Source: Kineosporiaceae bacterium (lineage in GTDB: Bacteria; Actinomycetota; Actinomycetes; Actinomycetales; JBBAYJ01). From it: a DNA stretch of 64,000 nucleotides. The translations under genes were made by a program, and so were the position numbers. Below are positions 4,793 through 44,364 of this stretch, one piece after another. Within the stretch, counting starts at the first letter, position 1, and every line of letters begins with the position of its first letter. A model generated the notes under the pieces. That model saw only the letters and a list, made by a program, of their open reading frames with translations, did no database searches and had not been told where the DNA came from. Location of the stretch: contig JBHJOJ010000022.1 in assembly GCA_050329835.1 (NCBI GenBank), positions 14,502-78,501 on the forward strand. The letters are read 5' to 3'.

Positions 4793-5996
4793 GGGCCCAT
4801 GTATAGCCGGACCGGACGATGCGGACGGGTCGGTCGGCGAGTTCCGCCGGCCGAGCCGTCCGGGCGTCCGGTCCGTCCGGCCCGTCCGGTTCGCCCGAAC
4901 CGCCGCTGGGTTCCGACTTGTCGTCGAGGTCGTCGTCGAGGTCGTCGTCGAGCAGCTCGTGGCGCTCCGGGTCGAGGAGCACCTCCTCGCCGTGCTCGCC
5001 GATGGGCCCGACCCCGTGACCCCGGGCCACGTCCGCCAGGTCGCGCCAGATCCCGCGGGGGTCCCGGGGCGGCGGCGGGTAGGACTGCAACTCCGTGAGC
5101 AGGGCGACGGCGGTGCGGGTGCCGTCGATCCGGGCCTGGCGGTGGCGCGCCTCGGCGATCCGGGTGGTGTCGATCCGGGTGGTGTCGATCCGGGCGGTGT
5201 CGATCCGGGCGGTGCCGAGGGGGACAGGGTCGGGAGCGTCGGCCGGCAGGACCGCGCCCCCGCAGCTGCGGCAGCCCCCGGCCGGGGCGGCAGCCCGGTC
5301 GAGGCGCGCCAGCAGGCCCACAGTCGCCTCCACGAGCCCCCGGGCCTGCGAGCCGCGTCGCCGTCCCGCCACCAGGAGCTCGACCACCAGGTCCAGCGTG
5401 GGAGGGCTCACGGTGGCGGCGGGGACGCGGTGGGCGAACTGGGCGGCGACCGCGACCGGATCCACCGGGGCGGACGTGCCCGTCGCGCCGCCCAGCGCTC
5501 CCGCCAGCGACCCGAGGACCTCCCGCAGTCTCGCGTCCAGGTCCGGATCGGCGGCGAGCCCGGCCCCGAGCCGCACGTAGAACGGCACCGGGCGCGGGGC
5601 CAGGGCGAGCACCCAGGCGACGTCGGGGCGTCCGGAGCCGGCGGCGGCCGCCGCCGTGGCGCCCAGCACCCGGTCCGCGAGTCGGGCGACGGCGGCGGCT
5701 GTGACCAGGGGTTCGGCGAGGGCCGCGGTCACCTCGTCCGGCTGGGGCCAGGCCGCGAGGTCCAGGGCGGCGGCCGCTGCGGCGGCGGGCACCCCGAGCC
5801 CTGTGCGGTCCAGCGAGCGGGACAGCCGGTCGCGGTCGGCGGGGGTGGCGGCGGGGGCGCCCGCGACGTGGTCGAGCAGCTCCGGCACCGGCAGCGACGT
5901 GAGGTCCGGGGCCGGCGCCGCCGGGCCGGCGCCGGCCGCGGGCCCGTCCCCTTCGGCGAGGAACTCGAGGAGGTCGCCCGTCTCGGCACGCAGCAC
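4734..5996 (-). CDS. Hypothetical Ala/Asp-rich repeat protein upstream of the Hsp70-like gene
   Basis: 420 aa with a GTG start and high GC3. Overlaps the Hsp70-like ORF. Contains in-frame repeats (TARID x4, DDDL x2-3, GPDGPD). No domain recognised. Confidence 0.55.
   Translation of the reverse strand: MLRAETGDLLEFLAEGDGPAAGAGPAAPAPDLTSLPVPELLDHVAGAPAATPADRDRLSRSLDRTGLGVPAAAAAAALDLAAWPQPDEVTAALAEPLVTAAAVARLADRVLGATAAAAAGSGRPDVAWVLALAPRPVPFYVRLGAGLAADPDLDARLREVLGSLAGALGGATGTSAPVDPVAVAAQFAHRVPAATVSPPTLDLVVELLVAGRRRGSQARGLVEATVGLLARLDRAAAPAGGCRSCGGAVLPADAPDPVPLGTARIDTARIDTTRIDTTRIAEARHRQARIDGTRTAVALLTELQSYPPPPRDPRGIWRDLADVARGHGVGPIGEHGEEVLLDPERHELLDDDLDDDLDDKSEPSGGSGEPDGPDGPDARTARPAELADRPVRIVRSGYTWAHGEEVVVLQRALVRLVNRG
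5157..5216. repeat. 15-bp tandem repeat x4 (gatccggg[t/c]ggtg[t/c]c) inside the CDS
   Basis: Four consecutive 15-nt units read directly from the sequence. They encode TARID/TTRID on the minus strand. Confidence 0.9.
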
Positions 5997-10431: not shown

Positions 10432-10854
10432 TCAGGTGTCGAGCGGGTTCGCGGCGTGCAGGCCGTTGCGTCGCGCCGCCGCGCAGACGTCGCGGTCCGC
10501 GCTCGCGAGGACGTCGGCCCGCAGGGTGAGGGCCGCGGCGAGGTGTACGGCGTCGTAGCCGCGCAGCGCCTCCCCTCCCGCGAGGTGCCGAGCCGTCGTG
10601 ACGATCCGTGGGGTGACCCCGACGAGCGTCAAGGCGTCGAGCAACTCGTCCAGGCGTTCCCCCGCGTCCCGCAGGTCGCCGGCGGAGAGGCGTCCGCCCC
10701 GGCGGGCGGCAGCCAGCGCCGCCGCAGCCTCCACCTCGACGAGGGCCGAGGACGAGGTGAGATCGCTGGCGTTCCACACCGACACCGCCCGTTCGGTGCC
10801 CGGCTCGGTGATGATGAGCTCGATCAGGGCCGACGTGTCGACGTAGGTCATCAT
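10432..10854 (-). CDS. vapC: PIN-domain toxin VapC
   Basis: 140 aa beginning MMTYVDTSALIELI, with conserved acidic positions. The start overlaps the antitoxin stop (ATGATGA). Confidence 0.8.
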   Translation of the reverse strand: MMTYVDTSALIELIITEPGTERAVSVWNASDLTSSSALVEVEAAAALAAARRGGRLSAGDLRDAGERLDELLDALTLVGVTPRIVTTARHLAGGEALRGYDAVHLAAALTLRADVLASADRDVCAAARRNGLHAANPLDT

Positions 10855-11105
10855 CGGCGCTGATCCGCCGCGAGGTCGCTGACGGTTGCACCGACGTCGA
10901 TCGGTCGTGGCGTCACCCGGGCCGACGACACGGGTGGTCGCACGAGGCCTCGTGCGAGGAGCTGGACGAGGTGGTCTTCGACGGGCGACAGGCCTGACAG
11001 CACCGCCACCGGGCGTCCGCGGTCGGTGACGACGACCCGCTCGCCCGACCGGACACCGGGGCGGCCGGGGCGGGACGCGCCGGCGACACCGCGAGGTGGT
11101 GACAT
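10851..11105 (-). CDS. vapB: Phd/YefM-type antitoxin (VapB)
   Basis: Core GERVVVTDRGRPVAVLSGL. The N-terminus is atypical, so the start is uncertain. It lies only 6 nt from the divergent putA start. Confidence 0.6.
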   Translation of the reverse strand: MSPPRGVAGASRPGRPGVRSGERVVVTDRGRPVAVLSGLSPVEDHLVQLLARGLVRPPVSSARVTPRPIDVGATVSDLAADQRR

Positions 11106-11111
11106 GGACCC

Positions 11112-14100
11112 GTGGCACTCCCGTCCGACGACGAGCTCGTCCGCCGCGCCCAGGCCCGCGCGCTCGCCCTGCTGACCCGGTCCCTCGCCGACACCGCGCC
11201 CGCCGAGCGCCGCGCCGCCGCCCGGCTGGGGCGCCTGGTGGCCGACGAGGCGGGCCGGGACCTGCTCCTCGACCTCACCGACCGGGTGGTCCGGATCCGG
11301 GACCCCCGCCGCTCCGCCGGCACCCTCGCCCACCTCGTCGCCCGCGGCCTGCCGCCGTCGCTCGGCCCGGTGGACCGGCTCGGGCTGCGCGTGCTGCGCC
11401 GACTGGCGCCGGTGGCGCCCCGGCTGGTCCGCCGTCTCGTCGACTGGCGGGTCGCCGGCGACGTCGCGGGGGTGATCCTGCCGTTCGACGACCCCGGCTT
11501 CCGGGCCTACGTGCGCCGGCGCACCGCCGAGGGATTCCGGGTCAACGTCAACGTCCTCGGCGAGGCGATCCTCGGCGACGGCGAGGCGGCCCGGCGGCTG
11601 GCCGCCGTGCTCGACCGGGTGCGCCGCCCCGACGTCACCCACGTCTCGGTGAAGATCTCGGCGATCTGCGCGAACCTGGACGTCCTCGCCGAGGAGGACT
11701 CCGTCGCCCGGATCTGCGACCGCCTCGCGGAGCTGTACCGGGCCGCCCGCGACGCCGGCGTCTTCGTCACCCTCGACATGGAGGAGTACCGCGACCTCGA
11801 ACTCTCGCTGCGCGCCTTCACCGCGACCCTGGACCGCCCGGAGTTCGCCGGCCTCGAGGCCGGGATCGTGCTCCAGGCGTACCTGCCGGACTCCCACGCC
11901 GCGCTGCACCGGCTCTGCGGGTGGGCGAACGCCCGGCGCGCCCGCGGCGGGGCCGGCATCCGGGTCCGGCTCGTCAAGGGCGCCAACCTCGCGATGGAGA
12001 CCGTCGAGGCCGAACTGCACGGCTGGCCGTGCGCGCCGTACCCCGCCAAGGCGGACGTGGACGCCTCGCTCAAGGCCTTGCTCGAGGCGGCCCTCGTCCA
12101 CGGCGAGCCCGCAGCGGTCCGGCTCGGCGTCGCCAGCCACAACCTCTTCGAGGTCGGCTGGGCGCTGACCGTGCGCGACGCGCTGGGAGCGGCCGACCGG
12201 GTCGAGATCGAGATGCTCGAGGGGATGGCCCCGCCGCAGGCCCGGGCGGTCCGGGACGACGCCGGCGGGCTGCTGCTGTACGCGCCGGTGGTCCGGGCGC
12301 GGGAGCGGGACGCCTCGATCGCCTACCTCAGCCGGCGCCTGGACGAGAACTCCGGGCCGGAGAACTTCCTCCGGTCGCTGTTCGCCCTCACGCCCGGGTC
12401 GCCGGCCTGGGAGGCCGAGCGCGCCCGCTTCCGCGCGTCGGCGGCCGCGCGGCGGACCGTGGCGACCGCGTCGCGGCGCAGCCAGGACCGGACGGCGCCG
12501 GTCCCGCCGTTCCCGGCCGACGGCTCCTTCGCCAACGTCGCGGACACCGACTTCACCGTGGCGGCGAACCGGCGGTGGATCGAGAGCTGCCTCGCCCTGC
12601 CGCCGCCCGCCGAGCCCACCCTCCTGCGGTCGGTCGCCGGGATCGACGCCCTGGTCACCCGCGCGCGACACGCCCAGGCGGCGTGGCGCGGGACGTCCTG
12701 GTCGCAGCGCCGCGAGGTGCTCGCCGCCGTCGCCCACCGGATGGAGTCCGAGCGCGGCCGGACCGTCGCGGCGATGGCCGCCACCACCGGCAAGACCGTC
12801 CGCGAGGGTGACCCCGAGGTGAGCGAGGCCGTCGACTTCGCCCGCTGGGCGGCGGCCCTCACCCGCGACCACGAGGCGGCCGAGCGGGCGGGTGCCCGGT
12901 GGGAGCCGCACCGCCTCGTGGTCGTGGCCGGGCCCTGGAACTTCCCGTACGCCATCCCGGCGTCGGGGGTGCTGCATGCCGTCGCCGCCGGGGCGGCGGT
13001 GCTCCTCAAGCCGGCGCCGGAGGCCCGCGCGGTGGCGGCGCTGCTGGTCGAGCAGGTCCGGGCGGCCGGTGAGGCCGCGGGCATGCCGGCCGGCCTCGTC
13101 CAGCTGGCGCCGACCCCGGACGACGAGGTGGGGCGGCACCTCGTCACCCACGAGGCCGTCGGCCTCGTCGTGCTCACCGGGAGCCTCGACACCGCGCGGC
13201 TGTTCCTGTCGTGGCGGCCCGACCTGCCGCTGGTCGCCGAGACCAGCGGCAAGAACGCCATGGTCATCACGGCCGCGGCGGACGTCGACCAGGCGATCAA
13301 GGACCTCGTCCGGTCCGCGTTCGGCCACGCCGGGCAGAAGTGCTCGGCGGCGAGCCTGGCGGTCGTCGAGGCGTCGCTGTACGACGATCCGGCGTTCCAC
13401 GAGCGGGTGGCGGACGCGACCAGGAGCCTGCCCGTGGGTGAGGCGAGCGACCTGCGCTCGGTGGTGGGACCCCTGGTCGGGCCGCCGCGGGGACCGCTGG
13501 AGCGGGCGCTCACCCGTCTGGAGCCGGGGGAGTCGTGGCTCGTGGAGCCCCGCCACCTCGGCGGCCACCGGTGGTCGCCGGGGGTGCGGCGGGACGTGGC
13601 GCCCGGCTCCTGGTTCCACCTCACCGAGTGCTTCGGCCCGGTGCTGGGGCTGCTGCGGGCCCGGGACCTCGACCACGCGATCGAGCTGCAGAACGCTCCC
13701 GCGTACGGGCTGACCGGAGGCATCCAGTCCCTGGACCCGGTCGAGGTGGACCGCTGGCTGGCCCGGGTCGAGGTCGGCAACGCCTACGTCAACCGGCACG
13801 TCACGGGGGCGATCGTGCGGCGGCAGCCGTTCGGCGGGTGGAAGGACTCCTCGGTCGGACCGGGGTGGAAGCCGGGCGGGCCGCACCACCTCGGGCTGTA
13901 CGGGACGTGGAGGGCGGGGTGGCTGCCGCCCGGGTCCGACGACTTCGCGGCCGCGTGGGCCGAGCTGTCGCGCCCGCACGACGCCACGGGCCTGGTGAGC
14001 GAGCGGAACGAGCTGCGGCACCGTCCGCTGGACCGCGTCGTCGCCCGGGTGGCCACGACGGACGACCCGCAGGTGGCGCTGCTGCGGGCGGCGTCGCGAG

Positions 14101-14387
14101 CGACCGGGGTCCCCCTCGAGCTGTCGGTCCTCGGCGAGGAGGCGGAGGACGCGCTCGCCGGGCGGCTCGCGTCCGTCACCGGGCGGCGCGGGGCGACGCG
14201 GCTGCGCTTGCTGGCGCCGGCGTCGGACGCGCTGCTCTCCGCCGCGCACGCGGCGGGCGTGGCGGTCGACCGGGCCCCGGTCGTCCGGCTGGGACGGGTC
14301 GAGCTGCCCCGGTGGGTCCGGGAGCAGGCCGTGTCGATCACCCGGCACCGCCACGGCCGGCTGCTGCGGGGGCGCGATCAGACGTGA
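11112..14387 (+). CDS. putA: Bifunctional proline dehydrogenase / L-glutamate gamma-semialdehyde dehydrogenase
   Basis: 1091 aa. PRODH barrel region (VNVNVLGEA, VSVKISA, GIVLQAYL, VRLVKGAN) followed by ALDH motifs (AETSGKNAMVI, GQKCSAAS). Confidence 0.9.
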   Translation: MALPSDDELVRRAQARALALLTRSLADTAPAERRAAARLGRLVADEAGRDLLLDLTDRVVRIRDPRRSAGTLAHLVARGLPPSLGPVDRLGLRVLRRLAPVAPRLVRRLVDWRVAGDVAGVILPFDDPGFRAYVRRRTAEGFRVNVNVLGEAILGDGEAARRLAAVLDRVRRPDVTHVSVKISAICANLDVLAEEDSVARICDRLAELYRAARDAGVFVTLDMEEYRDLELSLRAFTATLDRPEFAGLEAGIVLQAYLPDSHAALHRLCGWANARRARGGAGIRVRLVKGANLAMETVEAELHGWPCAPYPAKADVDASLKALLEAALVHGEPAAVRLGVASHNLFEVGWALTVRDALGAADRVEIEMLEGMAPPQARAVRDDAGGLLLYAPVVRARERDASIAYLSRRLDENSGPENFLRSLFALTPGSPAWEAERARFRASAAARRTVATASRRSQDRTAPVPPFPADGSFANVADTDFTVAANRRWIESCLALPPPAEPTLLRSVAGIDALVTRARHAQAAWRGTSWSQRREVLAAVAHRMESERGRTVAAMAATTGKTVREGDPEVSEAVDFARWAAALTRDHEAAERAGARWEPHRLVVVAGPWNFPYAIPASGVLHAVAAGAAVLLKPAPEARAVAALLVEQVRAAGEAAGMPAGLVQLAPTPDDEVGRHLVTHEAVGLVVLTGSLDTARLFLSWRPDLPLVAETSGKNAMVITAAADVDQAIKDLVRSAFGHAGQKCSAASLAVVEASLYDDPAFHERVADATRSLPVGEASDLRSVVGPLVGPPRGPLERALTRLEPGESWLVEPRHLGGHRWSPGVRRDVAPGSWFHLTECFGPVLGLLRARDLDHAIELQNAPAYGLTGGIQSLDPVEVDRWLARVEVGNAYVNRHVTGAIVRRQPFGGWKDSSVGPGWKPGGPHHLGLYGTWRAGWLPPGSDDFAAAWAELSRPHDATGLVSERNELRHRPLDRVVARVATTDDPQVALLRAASRATGVPLELSVLGEEAEDALAGRLASVTGRRGATRLRLLAPASDALLSAAHAAGVAVDRAPVVRLGRVELPRWVREQAVSITRHRHGRLLRGRDQT

Positions 14388-14803
14388 CGCGGGGCGACCT
14401 CCAGGCCATGGGTGGCAGCGCCCTCCCGGAGTCGACGGTCCCAGGCGACCACGATCGCGTCCGGCAACGCCCCGGCACTGGCCACGTGCACGGCGTCGGC
14501 ACCGCGGAGTGTCCGCTCGCTTGCGATCTCGCCCGCCCGGTCAGCCGTGGGTGGCGTCAACGGCACCTGGGCGATCGCCGGCCAGTAGTCCTCGGTCCAG
14601 GCCCGGACCTGCTCGCGGTGGTCCGAGTCGGTCAACCGGCCCGCCCTGTGTGCGGCCGCCAGGGCGGCGCGCACCTCGACGTGCCCGAGCAGGCTGCACG
14701 CGACGAGGTCGGCTGCGTCCCACAGGCCCGCGGCCGTCTCGCTCCCGGTCTCATCGACCAGCAGCTTCACGAGCGCGCTGGCATCGAAGTAGAGGATCGG
14801 CAT
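14378..14803 (-). CDS. vapC: PIN-domain toxin VapC (second copy, not a duplicate of the first)
   Basis: 141 aa beginning MPILYFDASALVKLLVDE. Its stop overlaps the putA stop region by 10 nt in convergent orientation. Confidence 0.8.
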   Translation of the reverse strand: MPILYFDASALVKLLVDETGSETAAGLWDAADLVACSLLGHVEVRAALAAAHRAGRLTDSDHREQVRAWTEDYWPAIAQVPLTPPTADRAGEIASERTLRGADAVHVASAGALPDAIVVAWDRRLREGAATHGLEVAPRHV

Positions 14804-14809
14804 CTCGGG

Positions 14810-15115
14810 TCAGTCCCGCTGAACGGACACCAGGTCCGCCACGGACCCACCGGTGGCACGGGCACGTCGCGCGCCCGTGGCCCGCGGGCGCGATGCCGAG
14901 GAGGGGCGCACCAGTATGCCGTCGTGATACATCCGCTCGATGGCGGGCGCGGTCTCGATGCCGAGGAGCCGTGCCACCGGAACGCCACGGTCCGTGACCA
15001 CGATCTCCTCGCCGTCACGAGCCCGATGCACGTAGTCGGCCAGCGATGCCCTGAGGGCGCTGATGGCGATGTCCACGGAGGCAACCGTACATGACGTGAC
15101 CTGTCCGATGTACAC
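14810..15115 (-). CDS. vapB: Phd/YefM-type antitoxin (VapB)
   Basis: ISALRASLADYVHRARDGEEIVVTDRGVPVARLLGI. Lies 6 nt upstream of vapC. Start is GTG at 15115 or 15076. Confidence 0.7.
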   Translation of the reverse strand: MYIGQVTSCTVASVDIAISALRASLADYVHRARDGEEIVVTDRGVPVARLLGIETAPAIERMYHDGILVRPSSASRPRATGARRARATGGSVADLVSVQRD

Positions 15116-15154
15116 CTGGTTGCCGGCTCGCTCACCGGCCTGACCGGGACCACA

Positions 15155-15267
15155 GGACGCGCTCGCCGGGCGGCTCGCGTCCGTCACCGAGCTGCCCCGG
15201 TGGGTCCGGGAGCAGGCGGTGTCGATCACCCGGCACCACCACGGCCGGCTGCTGCGGGGGGCGTGAG
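15155..15267 (+). pseudogene. Orphaned duplicate of the putA 3' end
   Basis: 15155-15190 is identical to 14146-14181. 15191-15262 matches 14302-14372 with 2 mismatches plus one extra G in the terminal G-run. It reads DALAGRLASVTELPRWVREQAVSITRHHHGRLLRGA*. Confidence 0.75.
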
Positions 15268-15876
15268 GGGATCGTCGGTCGGTCGGCGTGCGGCGAGGCG
15301 CTCGACGACGCCCGCGAGGAACCGCTCGTGCGCCTCGATCTCGAAACCGAGGTCGAGGACGTCGGGCAGCGGCCGGCGGCGCCAGTGCTCCCCGGGCAGC
15401 GGGAGGTGCGTCGCGTCCAGCACGGCCTGCAGGCCGCGGACCCACCGTCGCGTCGCCACGACGTGGTCGGCGAGCAGGAGCGTGCCGCCCGGCCGCAGGA
15501 CGCGGCCCATCTCCGTCAGAGCCTGCCGCTGGTCCGGCACGACGCAGAGTCCGAAGACGCAGAGGACCGTGTCGACGCTCGCGTCGGGCCAGGGGAGCCG
15601 TCGCGCGTCGCCCCGGCGCAGGTCCACCTCGCGGCCGAGCGCGCCGGCCCGGCGGCCGGTGACGGCCAGCATCCGGGTGCTCAGGTCGAGGGCCGCGAGG
15701 CGGACCTCCGGCCGGTAGTGGGGGAGGGTGAGCCCGGACCCGATGGCGACCTCGAGCGTGCGTCCGATCGCGCGCCCTGCGAGCCAGCGCCGCGTGCCCC
15801 GCAGGACGCGCGGGTCGAGCGCCCGTTGCAGCAGGTCGTACGGGCCGGCGACGACGTCCCACGCGCGACCGGTCAC
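15226..15876 (-). CDS. Class I SAM-dependent methyltransferase
   Basis: Motif I TLEVAIGSGLT and post-I/II elements (DASVDTVLCVFGL, LRPGGTLLLADH). The GTG start overlaps the upstream small-ORF stop (GTGA). Confidence 0.8.
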   Translation of the reverse strand: MTGRAWDVVAGPYDLLQRALDPRVLRGTRRWLAGRAIGRTLEVAIGSGLTLPHYRPEVRLAALDLSTRMLAVTGRRAGALGREVDLRRGDARRLPWPDASVDTVLCVFGLCVVPDQRQALTEMGRVLRPGGTLLLADHVVATRRWVRGLQAVLDATHLPLPGEHWRRRPLPDVLDLGFEIEAHERFLAGVVERLAARRPTDDPLTPPAAAGRGGAG

Positions 15877-16073
15877 ATCACGGCAGTCTGGCGGGCGCCC
15901 GTCTCCAGCCCCGGCAGCCGGCGCCTGCGGTGCAGGCCCCCCGCGTACCCGGTGCGGACGCCGGCGAGGCGCTCGTCGACCTGGTCGGCGCCGCGGCTCA
16001 GGACGAACGCGGTGCGGGACCGCGTCGCTGTCGGCCGCCCGACTCTCGACCTCTGGACGTCGTATCGCTCCAC
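15873..16073 (-). CDS. Small ORF (66 aa) coupled to the methyltransferase; may be the C-terminal part of a disrupted gene
   Basis: High GC3 and a GTGA stop/start overlap with the methyltransferase. An in-frame stop lies just upstream, next to a 17-bp tandem duplication. Confidence 0.35.
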   Translation of the reverse strand: MERYDVQRSRVGRPTATRSRTAFVLSRGADQVDERLAGVRTGYAGGLHRRRRLPGLETGARQTAVM

Positions 16074-16098
16074 CCAGGTGACCTGAACACCGCGTCAG

Positions 16099-16132
16099 CC
16101 GGACGGTCCTGGAAGCCGGACGGTCCTGGAAG
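16099..16132. repeat. Perfect 17-bp tandem duplication (ccggacggtcctggaag x2)
   Basis: Read directly: 16099-16115 equals 16116-16132. Confidence 0.95.
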
Positions 16133-16268
16133 AACGACGCCTCCACCGACGAGCGTGTCGTACTCCACGGGATCCCCGACTCCGATCGGCCCACCCTGCG
16201 TCATCCGTCGTGCCGCACCCCGGTCATGCCGGCTCCGCCGTCGCCACGGCTGGGCGGCTGCTGGGTGG

Positions 16269-16715
16269 TCAGTCCCGGTCGCGGCGGGCGAGGAGCCAGC
16301 GCGCCACCGCGGTGACGTACGCCCGGTATCCCTCGAGGGCTCGTGGCACTGCTGCGGCGAGGATCTCGAAGTCGATGGCCAGGTACTCGTGGACGACCAC
16401 GTTGCGCAGGCCCGCCGACGGGGCCAGCGCTCGTCCCAGCTCGTGGTCGACGAGGCCGGACTCGGCGGCGAGGGCGAACGACTGCCGGTAGTCCCGGGGA
16501 GATCGCCCGAGCGTCGTGGCGGCGACGTGACTGTTGACCGCTGCGGCCAGCTCGACGACATGGGTGAGCGCGCGCTCGACGACGAGGCGCGTCGCCAGGT
16601 CCGACTCCAGGCGGGCGGCGTCGATCGCGCCCAGGCCTTCGAGGAGGTCCAGGCGCTCCCGGATGAGAGCGATCTTCGCTTCCACCGTCTCGTCGTCCAG
16701 GCGCTTCGGACTCAC
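16269..16715 (-). CDS. hepT: HepT-like HEPN (DUF86) toxin, type VII TA
   Basis: R-x4-H motif in GLRNVVVHEY. The GTG start overlaps the MntA stop (GTGA). Confidence 0.8.
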   Translation of the reverse strand: MSPKRLDDETVEAKIALIRERLDLLEGLGAIDAARLESDLATRLVVERALTHVVELAAAVNSHVAATTLGRSPRDYRQSFALAAESGLVDHELGRALAPSAGLRNVVVHEYLAIDFEILAAAVPRALEGYRAYVTAVARWLLARRDRD

Positions 16716-17245
16716 CGGCCCGCCGCCATGAGCTCCAGGTCGAGGTCCCGCATCCACCTGGTGTCCATCCGTTCCAGCGTCGCGGCCATGGCGGCCCGGG
16801 TCAGAGCACCCGGCTCGCTCTCGTAGAGACCGACCGACCCGACGAGGGCACGCTCGCGGATGACCGGACCTCCCCGGTTGAGGAACGCCGGGTCCACCGC
16901 CTCGGTCCCGGCGAGTTCGACGAGGTCGCCGAGGAGGCCGACGGGATCCGGTTGCGTCGTCGCGTCGAGGACGATGCCGACGTCCAGGTCATGGGCGTCG
17001 GTCTCGCCCCGGGCGGCACTGCCGAACACCGTGAGGACCCGGATCCCATGGCGACGGCAGAACTCACCCAGTTCCCCCGACTCCGCGGCGGCGCGGAGTC
17101 GTCGCAGCCCCGCCGGGACCCCGGCCATCGCGTCGGTCGCGTCGGTCGCGTCGGTCGCGGTCACGGTCCCCACGATGCCATCCATCAGCGGGCTGCGGCC
17201 GCGTCGCGGTCGGCCCGTGCCGGCCGTGTCCGACCCCCGCGCCAT
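16712..17245 (-). CDS. mntA: MntA-like nucleotidyltransferase antitoxin
   Basis: Minimal NTase motif FGSAARGETDAHDLDVGIV. The start is ambiguous (17245, 17185 or 17128). Confidence 0.75.
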   Translation of the reverse strand: MARGSDTAGTGRPRRGRSPLMDGIVGTVTATDATDATDAMAGVPAGLRRLRAAAESGELGEFCRRHGIRVLTVFGSAARGETDAHDLDVGIVLDATTQPDPVGLLGDLVELAGTEAVDPAFLNRGGPVIRERALVGSVGLYESEPGALTRAAMAATLERMDTRWMRDLDLELMAAGR

Positions 17246-17256
17246 CCTCCCGGGCC

Positions 17257-17793
17257 ATGACCGCCGGGACCCAGAGGACGACCGTTCGACGTGCGACCGA
17301 CGCCATTGCCGCGACCACCCTGCAGTGGCTGCGGGGCGAGCGGAGCGGGACGCCGTGGAACCTCGGCCCGCCCGACCCCGAGACGTGGCCCCTGGTGGAG
17401 GACCTGATCCGGATCAACGAGGCGGGACTGGCGACCCTGTCGTCCCAGCCGGGGATGCGGGGCGAGTTCCACGGCCTGCACGTCGAGCAGCGGGCCTACG
17501 TGGACGGCGTCGCCGACTTCCCCCTCGCCCGCATGATCGTGGACGTCGCGGCGGGCACGGACCTCATGGCCATGGCGCTGCCGGTGATGCAGGACGCCGC
17601 GATCTCGGTGGCGGTCTCCCGCGGGGCGGCGGGCAACCACACCTGGGGGGACGTCGAGCGGGCGCACGACGTGGTCGAGGTGGTGTCGCCGGAGGTGGTC
17701 GACTGGCGGGATGCCTGGAAGGTGCTCGTCGTCGACCCCGAATGGGGCCGGCCCCGCGCGCTGTGGGACCTGCTCCGCTCGATCACCGGATGA
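17257..17793 (+). CDS. Hypothetical protein (resembles actinobacterial DUF6919-type proteins; family assignment is tentative)
   Basis: 178 aa with high GC3. Segment LQWLRGE...PPDPETWPLVEDLIRINEAGLATLSSQPG. Confidence 0.55.
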   Translation: MTAGTQRTTVRRATDAIAATTLQWLRGERSGTPWNLGPPDPETWPLVEDLIRINEAGLATLSSQPGMRGEFHGLHVEQRAYVDGVADFPLARMIVDVAAGTDLMAMALPVMQDAAISVAVSRGAAGNHTWGDVERAHDVVEVVSPEVVDWRDAWKVLVVDPEWGRPRALWDLLRSITG

Positions 17794-43074: not shown

Positions 43075-44364
43075 CTACCGGTGGCTGCGCGTCACCTGGG
43101 AGGGCAGCTGCCGGTCGTCCTGAGCGCCCGCCGCACCCGGGGCCGGCAGGCGGAGGACCAGTCGGGCGCCGGGGCCGTCCTCCCGGTTCGACGCCTGCAG
43201 GTCCCCTGACATCCGGCGGGCCAGGGCCCGGGAGATCGTGAGCCCGAGACCGGACCCGTCGCCGTCGTGGTGGTGGCGGGACGGGTCGCCCCGGTAGAGG
43301 CGGTCGAAGACGTGCGGGAGATGCTCGGGCGCGAACCCCTCGCCGGTGTCCGCGACGCTCAGCAGACCGTCCTCTCCGTCGGGGGAGACGGCGACGGTCA
43401 CAACGCCCCCGTCCGGCGTGTGCCGGAGGGCGTTGTCGAGGAGGTTGCCGACGATCTGGGCCAGCCGCGCCGGGTCGGCCAGCGCGGACACCGGTCCCGG
43501 GGCCGTCACGCCCAGCCGGACGCCGGCCCGCGTCGCCATCGGTCGGGCCGCCGCCACCGCGCGTTCCGCCTCCGCCGCCAGGTCGACGGGCACGGGATCC
43601 AGCGCCAGGGTCCGCTCCTCGGCCGCGGCCAGGACCTGGAGGTCCGTGACGAGCCGGCTCATCCGGTCCAGCTGCGAGCGGAGCGCGGCGAGGGTCCCGG
43701 CGTCGGGGTCCAGAACCCCGTCCTGCAACGCCTCGACCTGGGCGAGGAGCGTCGACAGGGGCGAGCGCAGCTCGTGGGCGAGGTCGTTCTGCTGCCGCCG
43801 CCGCTCGGTGTCCGCCTCCGCCAGGCGCCGGGCCATCTCCCGGAAGGACCCAGCCAGGTCGCGCGCCTCGGTGCCGAGCCGCGGGTCCGGGACGGCGACG
43901 TCGAACCGGCCGCGGGCGATCCGGTCGGCGGCCCGCGCCAGCTCCGAGAACGGCGACGCGAGCCGTCGGCTGGTGACGAGCGCGACCCCGGCCGCGGCCA
44001 GGGCGGACACCGCCAGGGCACTGGCCACCCCGATGAGCAGGGACGTCGCGAACGCCTCCCGGGCGTGGGCGAGCACGTGGGGATCGGTCTCCCCGGCGCG
44101 CCGCAGGTGCTCGTCGAACAGCGGGGGCGCCACCACCCACGTCACGACCACGACGGCCAGCACCGCCGCCGTCACCAGCCCGACGTCCGCGACGAGCAGC
44201 CGCGACCGCAGCCCGCCGCGCCCCCTCCCCCGGGTCTTCCGCCCATAACCGGTCCCAGAGCCGGTCCCGGGCCCCGTTATCCGCCCATAACCGGTCTCAG
44301 AGCCGGTCCCGGGCCCGGTTATCCGCCCATAACCGGGTGGGGGAGGGCGGGCAGGATCAGGCAT
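43075..44364 (-). CDS. Sensor histidine kinase
   Basis: TM-HAMP-DHp (H-box AHELRSPLS)-CA (NLLDNALRHT, DTGEGF, GSGLGLTIS). The ATG at 44364 overlaps the response-regulator stop. Confidence 0.85.
   Translation of the reverse strand: MPDPARPPPPGYGRITGPGTGSETGYGRITGPGTGSGTGYGRKTRGRGRGGLRSRLLVADVGLVTAAVLAVVVVTWVVAPPLFDEHLRRAGETDPHVLAHAREAFATSLLIGVASALAVSALAAAGVALVTSRRLASPFSELARAADRIARGRFDVAVPDPRLGTEARDLAGSFREMARRLAEADTERRRQQNDLAHELRSPLSTLLAQVEALQDGVLDPDAGTLAALRSQLDRMSRLVTDLQVLAAAEERTLALDPVPVDLAAEAERAVAAARPMATRAGVRLGVTAPGPVSALADPARLAQIVGNLLDNALRHTPDGGVVTVAVSPDGEDGLLSVADTGEGFAPEHLPHVFDRLYRGDPSRHHHDGDGSGLGLTISRALARRMSGDLQASNREDGPGARLVLRLPAPGAAGAQDDRQLPSQVTRSHR
44239..44337. repeat. 42-bp tandem repeat (2.3 copies) inside the kinase N-terminus
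   Basis: 44239-44280 and 44281-44322 differ at 2 positions, and a partial third unit follows. Each unit carries ATAACCGG...CCGGTTAT arms and encodes GYGRITGPGTGS(E/G)T. Confidence 0.85.

Follow-up and report, generated by a model that had tools for sequence, protein, structure and literature searches.

A segment of 227 nucleotides (nt) from the 3' end of the proline catabolism gene putA recurs, shortened by an internal deletion, on the other side of a vapBC toxin-antitoxin (TA) operon, in a 64,000-nt stretch of DNA from a member of the Actinomycetota (Kineosporiaceae bacterium, GenBank assembly GCA_050329835.1, contig JBHJOJ010000022.1, positions 14,502 to 78,501). This stretch is termed the window here, and coordinates refer to it unless another contig is named. 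We read the arrangement as the footprint of a vapBC operon that was inserted at the 3' end of putA by recombination and left the displaced gene end beside a methyltransferase gene, and put the probability of this reading at roughly 0.6.

Anatomy of the duplicated gene end and of the inserted unit

The following features make up the insertion.

11112-14387, plus strand: putA, bifunctional proline dehydrogenase/1-pyrroline-5-carboxylate dehydrogenase, 1091 amino acids (aa) (Pfam Pro_dh, E=1e-56; Aldedh, E=4.6e-86)
14146-14372, plus strand: proximal repeat copy of the target; these 227 nt from the 3' end of putA still form part of the functional gene
14373-15153, unstranded: inserted unit of 781 nt, consisting of the vapBC operon and its upstream region only and bracketed by the repeat copies
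14378-14803, minus strand: vapC, PIN-domain toxin, 141 aa (Pfam PIN, E=6.1e-12; identical protein P0121)
14810-15076, minus strand: vapB, Phd/YefM-type antitoxin, 88 aa, GTG start (Pfam PhdYeFM_antitox, E=5.2e-9)
15077-15153, minus strand: vapB upstream region, 77 nt, with the inverted repeat GTACAT (15087-15092)/ATGTAC (15108-15113)
15154-15267, plus strand: distal copy, the displaced putA 3' remnant, with a 120-nt deletion, an R-to-H exchange in HRHG and its own stop (...RLLRGA)

The two copies align in two blocks on which a repeat finder, reading of the sequence and manual alignment agree: 15154-15189 equals 14146-14181 (36/36), and 15188-15260 matches 14300-14372 (71/73). The first-pass annotation of the window, made from the letters alone, had paired the same segments, with full identity in the first and two mismatches in the second, and both statements hold; its distal interval for the first block (15155-15190) was off by one, and its borders for the second (15191-15262 and 14302-14372) are replaced by those given here. 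The offset between the copies is 1008 nt in block 1 and 888 nt in block 2, so that 120 nt are missing from the distal copy. This deletion, described at first pass as in frame and about 120 bp long, removes exactly 40 codons at the junction 15189/15190, where the dinucleotide CG is the only microhomology. Of the duplicated footprint of 227 nt, 36 + 73 nt are kept in the distal copy, with an identity of 107/109. When up to 20% mismatches were allowed, the 36-mer and the 73-mer each occurred exactly twice in the 64-kb window and on one strand only. The two blocks are its sole dispersed direct repeats of at least 30 nt, while the background of "repeats" that the finder reports for the region stays at or below 34 nt and 83% identity.

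The remnant translates as QDALAGRLASVTELPRWVREQAVSITRHHHGRLLRGA and ends at its own stop (15265-15267), in line with the ...HGRLLRGA terminus read earlier. It has lost 40 codons of a conserved stretch (...LLAPASDALL...AGVAVD...) and carries H in the motif HR[HY]G where all 80 listed homologues have R; the motif of the proximal copy is intact. Loss and substitution are the kind of damage expected of an unselected copy. The minus-strand stop of the convergent methyltransferase gene (15226-15228) lies inside the remnant, an overlap that had also been recognized at first pass, and the last 14 codons of this gene together with its stop are remnant-derived.

PutA of the window (100% identical to P0001, "MAG: Kineosporiaceae bacterium", i.e., from a metagenome-assembled genome) ends ...TRHRHGRLLRGRDQT at position 14387, the ...HGRLLRGRDQT terminus described previously, and the last 10 nt of putA cover the vapC stop (14378). 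The first 15 nt of the inserted unit encode the new tail RDQT and its stop, antisense to the end of vapC. The join point lies after ...GRLLRG, and the sole change to PutA is the replacement of a terminal A by RDQT ahead of the stop. Homologues for comparison were collected by scanning a genome collection with the C-terminal 399 aa; the listed relatives are at most 69% identical, and the set yielded both the C-terminal motif and the locus L044 treated below. Among the matches listed, 80 homologues are conserved as far as ...REQAVSxTRHR[HY]GRL, beyond which one to five variable residues precede the stop. Since conservation stops before the tail, the exchange affects unconserved residues only, and it appears as a trivial, neutral-looking change that would leave PutA not remodelled: the protein has the Pro_dh and Aldedh domains and, in the proximal copy, an intact C-terminal motif after which the new tail begins. 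The earlier proposal that the insertion rewrote the C-terminus of a housekeeping gene holds as far as the tail is concerned but overstated the extent of the change, the family motif ...TRHRHGRL being intact.

The unit at 14373-15153 holds vapC, vapB and the operator region complete, i.e., two genes in far less than 20 kb. vapB ends 6 nt ahead of the vapC start in the same operon, and the acidic residues D7, E43, D103 and D121 can be read from the VapC translation. With a PIN toxin gene and a small antitoxin gene upstream of it, the pair at 14378-15076 is predicted to be a VapBC type II TA system. The vapB product is 83% identical to the 88-aa antitoxin of the syntenic relative L082. The inverted repeat GTACAT-N15-ATGTAC is kept in L082 and in a second relative, L093, with diverged intervening sequence, and CGTACA-N16-ATGTACAC is conserved upstream of vapB in all three; the element at 15087-15113 is probably the VapB operator. 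No match to a sigma-70 consensus was found upstream of vapB, and scans for promoter and terminator consensus sequences came back empty.

Several features of the unit bear on its origin and mobility. Homology of the cassette to the vapBC operons of L082, L093 and the further relative L097 extends from 14367/14378 to 15091, and its conservation edges lie a few nt past the vapC stop (GATCAGACG) and about 12 nt beyond the vapB inverted repeat; such sharply bounded homology fits a compact mobile unit. Its GC content is about 70-72%, as against 77-81% in the 3' part of putA. With only 781 nt the unit is too small for a mobility gene. Reading of its ends revealed no terminal inverted repeats, CGCGATCAGACG... 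on the left and ...GACCGGGACCAC on the right not being inverted copies of each other. A DNA transposon or miniature inverted-repeat transposable element was rejected on account of these ends and of the duplication, which measures 227 nt where less than 15 bp would be expected.

Independent support for the junctions

The window derives from a Kineosporiaceae MAG, and the assembly was therefore checked against Logan contigs. Two strain variants of a metagenome fused into one chimeric contig could in principle produce such a picture, the more so as copies that are 98% identical could mislead assemblers. Such a chimera must, however, account for the junctions 15153/15154 and 15189/15190, novel sequences that have to be present in reads. 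The stretch 14152-17157 is covered at 100% identity by three Logan contigs: L081 (window 14152-15183) and L095 (15160-17157), both from run SRR3310984, and L096 (14812-16047) from run SRR3311162. L096 continues unbroken through vapB, both junctions, the remnant stop and the methyltransferase gene, and L081 and L095 terminate at precisely the points at which the 36-nt repeat would interrupt a k=31 graph. As contigs from two runs independently span the novel junctions, an assembly artefact, which had been named at first pass as a possible refutation, is very unlikely, to the point of being negligible.

The target in relatives

Relatives were taken from the protein collection as contigs of PutA homologues with 85-89% identity; a scan of metagenome contigs with the last 130 aa of PutA gave four distant loci, none of them useful. 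The genes to the right of the insertion and the haplotypes found between putA and the DUF6919 gene are as follows.

15226-15876, minus strand: class I S-adenosylmethionine (SAM)-dependent methyltransferase, 216 aa (Pfam Methyltransf_11, E=2.1e-19; P0241 100% identical; gene call on L095)
16269-17245, minus strand: HepT/MntA-like nucleotidyltransferase pair (HepT-like, E=2.4e-18; NTP_transf_2/Polbeta, E about 3e-5)
17257-17793, plus strand: DUF6919 gene (Pfam DUF6919, E=6.2e-27), the conserved right border of the hotspot
Window: putA - vapC - vapB - putA remnant - methyltransferase - HepT/MntA - DUF6919
Long island (L082/L083/L084, L097): putA - methyltransferase - MGMT (truncated in L097) - vapC - vapB - DUF6919
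Long island with a 968-nt deletion (L093/L094): putA - methyltransferase 3' fragment - vapC - vapB - DUF6919
No island (L085, L086): putA - DUF6919, tens of nt apart

In L082/L083/L084, L093/L094 and L097 a single putA 3' end is contiguous with sequence homologous to window 15261-15951, with no vapBC in between. The window segment 15188-15951 aligns as one block to L082 11189-11968, which leads from an intact putA end into the methyltransferase gene. All relatives without the cassette at this position lack a second putA 3' end; persistence of both copies in such relatives had been named as a finding that would speak against an insertion. The putA/methyltransferase arrangement regarded as probably ancestral in the first-pass annotation is thus met with in three haplotype groups, putA being intact and directly convergent on the methyltransferase gene. 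The contiguity is as anticipated; the anticipated terminus ...RLLRGA is not found in these relatives, putA of L082, for example, ending ...RLLRE.

On the DUF6919 side, L082, L085, L086, L093 and L097 are homologous to the window from about 17211-17219 on. The L082-, L093- and L097-type relatives possess a vapBC operon of the same family (toxin 141 aa, antitoxin 88 aa; 77-83% aa and 79% nt identity to that of the window), which adjoins DUF6919 on the far side of the methyltransferase gene, so that the family is resident in the interval. Judged by these gene orders, the stretch between putA and DUF6919 is a hotspot of accessory genes with high turnover in a Kineosporiaceae-like clade. Compared with L082 (11394-12361), L093/L094 show a 968-nt deletion of most of the methyltransferase gene and of MGMT that leaves a 130-nt methyltransferase fragment, apparently a further sign of rapid turnover.

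Some observations concern other components of the interval. The methyltransferase frame of L082 (10787-12424, minus strand) has no stop until deep in the putA antisense strand and was not called by the source pipeline; L097 has an intact copy of 213 aa. The HepT/MntA pair is a second TA module of the island, absent from the fetched relatives (L082, L085 and L086 among them), and has no flanking repeat of at least 30 nt. A second PIN and Phd/YefM pair lies divergently just upstream of putA (10432-11093, minus strand), so that TA modules occur on both sides of the gene. Its PIN protein is only about 39% identical to the downstream VapC, and L082-L085 retain the pair. In L086 the alignment to this region shrinks to 51 nt (window 10992-11042, within the antitoxin coding region), which suggests that the upstream pair was deleted there. 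Unrelated to the insertion, the window contains two tandem repeats, a 15-nt unit (CGATCCGGGTGGTGT) present about four times at 5156-5215 and a 42-nt unit present twice at 44238-44321.

Recurrence at putA ends in other lineages

A second copy of the locus' own putA end was searched for in 87 testable putA loci, and dispersed direct repeats were then sought in about 1 Mb of sequence. The loci had been sampled on putA, and nothing can therefore be derived for other genes. Two more lineages have such a footprint at their putA end, around TA cassettes that are unrelated to the window vapBC. In L087 (PutA 73% identical), a duplication of 228 nt (5096-5323/7438-7647, 83% identity overall) comprises the last about 150 nt of putA and about 78 nt downstream; the distal copy has an 18-nt gap and an in-frame stop. 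These repeats bracket 2.1 kb with a FitA-like/PIN pair and a PIN/62-aa pair, and a third, PIN/AbrB-like pair lies convergent to the distal remnant. The intact putA of L087 has an extended tail (...RPWIDTGGELTGRVGI) that is antisense to a duplicated 3'-end fragment of a PIN gene. In L044, an Acidimicrobiaceae MAG, 63 nt are duplicated (7157-7218/7870-7932, 84% identity), namely the last about 45 nt of putA and about 18 nt downstream, and bracket a MazE-like/PemK pair. As the repeat copies of L087 and L044 have diverged by 12-17%, they are no assembly artefacts. The occurrence of three independent, repeat-flanked, TA-only units at one and the same gene end is suggestive.

Other candidates were discarded. 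The repeat pairs of L010, L031, L071 and L078 appear to be parts of paralogues that surround genes other than TA genes (a major facilitator superfamily transporter; an AraC regulator plus putA). A perfect 55-nt putA-end repeat in L051 (1765-1922) spans a run of N and is an artefact of scaffolding or masking. L053 and L071 were rejected as empty sites for L044, their downstream regions being unrelated; L053 contains a decayed mazEF copy and no distal repeat.

Integrative elements often target the 3' ends of genes and bring a replacement end with them. The putA 3' end could accordingly be an attB site and the repeats attL and attR, with vapBC as the remainder of a decayed element, and it is true that this gene end was struck in three lineages. 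However, the 781-nt unit neither contains nor adjoins an integrase gene, and in the syntenic L082 the gene calls over about 8 kb include no integrase and no transposase; the window is devoid of tRNA genes, and Rfam gave no match nearby. Furthermore, the repeats of 227, 228 and 63 nt differ in their boundaries, share no common core and are too long and too variable for typical att cores. Site-specific integration is accordingly left with a slim chance. The left edge of the duplication bears the 9-mer GGACGCGCT both in the window, at 14147, and in L087, where its position 5100 corresponds to window 14225. The plus strand of the 64-kb window has only four copies of it, including those at 14147, 14225 and 15155, and its position at both edges, noticed post hoc in two cases, may be coincidence.

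Polarity and route of the proposed insertion

With respect to polarity, exact route, order of the later decay and selective maintenance we infer the following. In the ancestor, putA would have ended ...RLLRGA and converged directly on the SAM-methyltransferase gene, the empty site consisting of the full 227-nt putA end running ...GGGGGGCGTGAGGGG into the latter. The 781-nt unit of toxin, antitoxin and operator would have entered 15 nt ahead of the putA stop with direct duplication of the last about 227 nt of its target. The proximal copy, in frame with putA, would have gained four codons and a stop from the cassette edge; the distal copy would have become a dead remnant that later suffered the 120-nt loss and the R-to-H exchange in the conserved motif. 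The event would have been recombinational, without transposase or integrase, and could have proceeded by a homologous crossover in putA combined with an illegitimate second join, by Campbell-type integration of a circular molecule with a putA fragment, or by template switching in break repair. VapBC addiction would select against loss of the unit via recombination between the repeats. It is on the anatomy of the locus that we favour a recombination route over others. The proposed polarity is supported by the position of the repeats, which bracket vapBC and not the methyltransferase block, and by the distribution of the junctions, that of putA with the methyltransferase gene being found in the L082, L093 and L097 groups and that of putA with vapBC in the window only.

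Several points weigh against this reading. In PutA the relatives used diverge by 11-15%, their islands are also otherwise dissimilar, and no empty-site genome of more than 95% identity was found; nor was an empty-site relative found for L044 or L087. The two substitutions between the copies could reflect divergence of donor and recipient rather than decay. Related vapBC operons on the DUF6919 side in relatives make an internal rearrangement possible, and 15132-15159 resembles the DUF6919 start, with AGGACG as microhomology, although weakly so (uncorrected p about 0.01-0.03). Finally, the polarity is not proven, since the same topology would result if the methyltransferase/HepT-MntA block, accompanied by a donor putA fragment, had joined a resident putA-vapBC arrangement.

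In this reverse scenario a donor fragment with a putA 3' end, the methyltransferase gene and HepT/MntA would have been joined upstream of vapB. In addition to the identical topology, it could draw on the methyltransferase gene, which with 76-77% nt identity to L082 and L097 is more diverged than the flanks (85-87%; putA and DUF6919 sequences 84-88%), and on L087, in whose older arrangement putA and a PIN gene are directly convergent. Moreover, the methyltransferase-MGMT block of L082 has similar ends, GGGAGTGATCAG at the putA stop (about 11253-11268) and GGGCGTGAGATCAG at the vapC stop (about 12428-12443); this resemblance of the left flank of the L082 cassette to the putA stop region is a hint that putA and vapC may once have abutted there too. 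Opposed to this stand the position of the repeats and the distribution of the junctions set out above, and a putA-vapBC-DUF6919 haplotype was not found among the fetched relatives. We consider the reverse polarity unlikely, though by no means far-fetched.

Alternatively, an L082-like ancestor could have undergone a tandem duplication between AGGACG sites (in putA at 14146 and at the DUF6919 start at 17275), followed by two deletions in which the first methyltransferase block and the second vapBC were lost. The L082-type order indeed exists in two haplotype groups, L082 (with its derivative L093/L094) and L097, and the AGGACG held in common by 15132-15159 and the DUF6919 start would fit. This similarity at the junction is, however, marginal, and three events are needed. 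In local alignments against shuffled sequences, 15092-15153 scored p values from 0.006 to 0.6 against the vapB-DUF6919 spacer or the DUF6919 start, depending on the target; that this segment may keep a piece of either is a weak lead. Besides, the window cassette is no closer to that of L082 (79.1% nt identity) or L093 (78.7%) than to that of the non-syntenic L092 (78.4%), L082 and L092 being 80.4% identical to each other; for the flanks the figure is 85-87%. The window cassette is thus equidistant from syntenic and non-syntenic copies and not simply a relocated L082 cassette. An internal rearrangement appears improbable, and the window vapBC has the look of an allele that was acquired separately within a hotspot of rapid turnover. 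The insertion of vapBC at the putA end, first put forward as a TA module arriving by recombination, is therefore the reading we retain, with the provisos that its polarity is the unproven part and that the cassette family was already resident in the hotspot.

Comparison with known systems

The closest parallel is the "insertion with long target duplication" of restriction-modification (R-M) units (Nobusato et al. 2000, Gene 259:99; Furuta, Abe & Kobayashi 2010, NAR, PMC2853133; also PMC3874152). In these cases a small unit without a mobility gene is flanked by direct repeats of 30 to about 420 bp, and a related genome carries the target in single copy (PMC2853133). Several of them overlap the 3' end of a neighbouring gene, and one gave rise to a gene fusion; the authors proposed that the cargo breaks DNA and that insertion, repeat-driven amplification and release form a cycle (PMC2853133). 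Measured by the yardsticks of that study, the window has a complete unit of less than 20 kb between its repeats, no mobility gene in it and a duplication longer than 30 bp. The target is single-copy in L082/L083/L084, L093/L094, L097, L085 and L086, relatives that are 11-15% divergent and not conspecific. That study also asks that the repeat be no multicopy element of the genome; in the 64 kb covered here it has no further copies. Like the R-M insertions, the vapBC insertion thus combines an addiction-type unit devoid of transposase and integrase with long direct repeats and a single-copy target in relatives. It differs in its cargo, a type II TA pair with an RNase toxin instead of a DNA-cleaving system, and in that the same host gene end was struck in three lineages. 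Because VapC and MazF are RNase toxins, breakage by the cargo is no option, which favours a general recombination route.

With homology-facilitated illegitimate or Campbell-type recombination the locus has in common that one side is in the putA register while the other junction exhibits little if any homology (2-6 nt). A single crossover of a circle with a putA fragment would give exactly such a repeat-flanked structure. Such routes usually delete or replace recipient DNA, whereas the target is duplicated here, and no donor or circle came to light. Resemblance to integrative elements that target 3' ends lies in a gene that stays functional via a new 3' end, with the displaced end located beyond the insert; in contrast to such elements there is no integrase, the replacement amounts to only four codons from the vapC antisense strand, and repeat lengths and boundaries vary between cases. 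As for VapBC modules of Actinomycetota, a PIN toxin after a Phd/YefM-type antitoxin, a palindromic upstream operator and clusters of TA genes in variable regions are all in keeping with what is usual: the module itself is ordinary, its insertion footprint distinctive.

Implications

The locus adds a well-documented case to a known kind of rearrangement. For its class of cargo, searches of the accessible literature yielded no prior report and, for TA cassettes flanked by duplicated gene ends, no direct precedent. To our knowledge, movement of chromosomal TA pairs without transposase or integrase is poorly documented, most accounts only placing them in islands. Here, the footprint is resolved to the base: both junctions are known, relatives show the target in single copy, and independent reads support it.

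For genome annotation, the locus indicates that a conserved enzyme may gain its stop from the antisense strand of a neighbour, apparently without functional cost, and that short fossils of gene ends can provide the last codons of a convergent gene.

On a more tentative note, minimal TA cassettes such as VapBC and MazEF might spread by the long-target-duplication route without cleavage by the cargo. They would be excised through repeat-mediated recombination and re-enter by homology together with a carried gene-end fragment, the putA 3' end serving as a recurrent landing site and addiction stabilizing the landings. We regard this as possible rather than probable. That this signature is also seen around toxins of the RNase type speaks for a general recombination route plus selection for addictive cargo. 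The idea is testable by a genome-wide screen, and interest in the locus would rise if it turned out to represent a general route of TA mobility.

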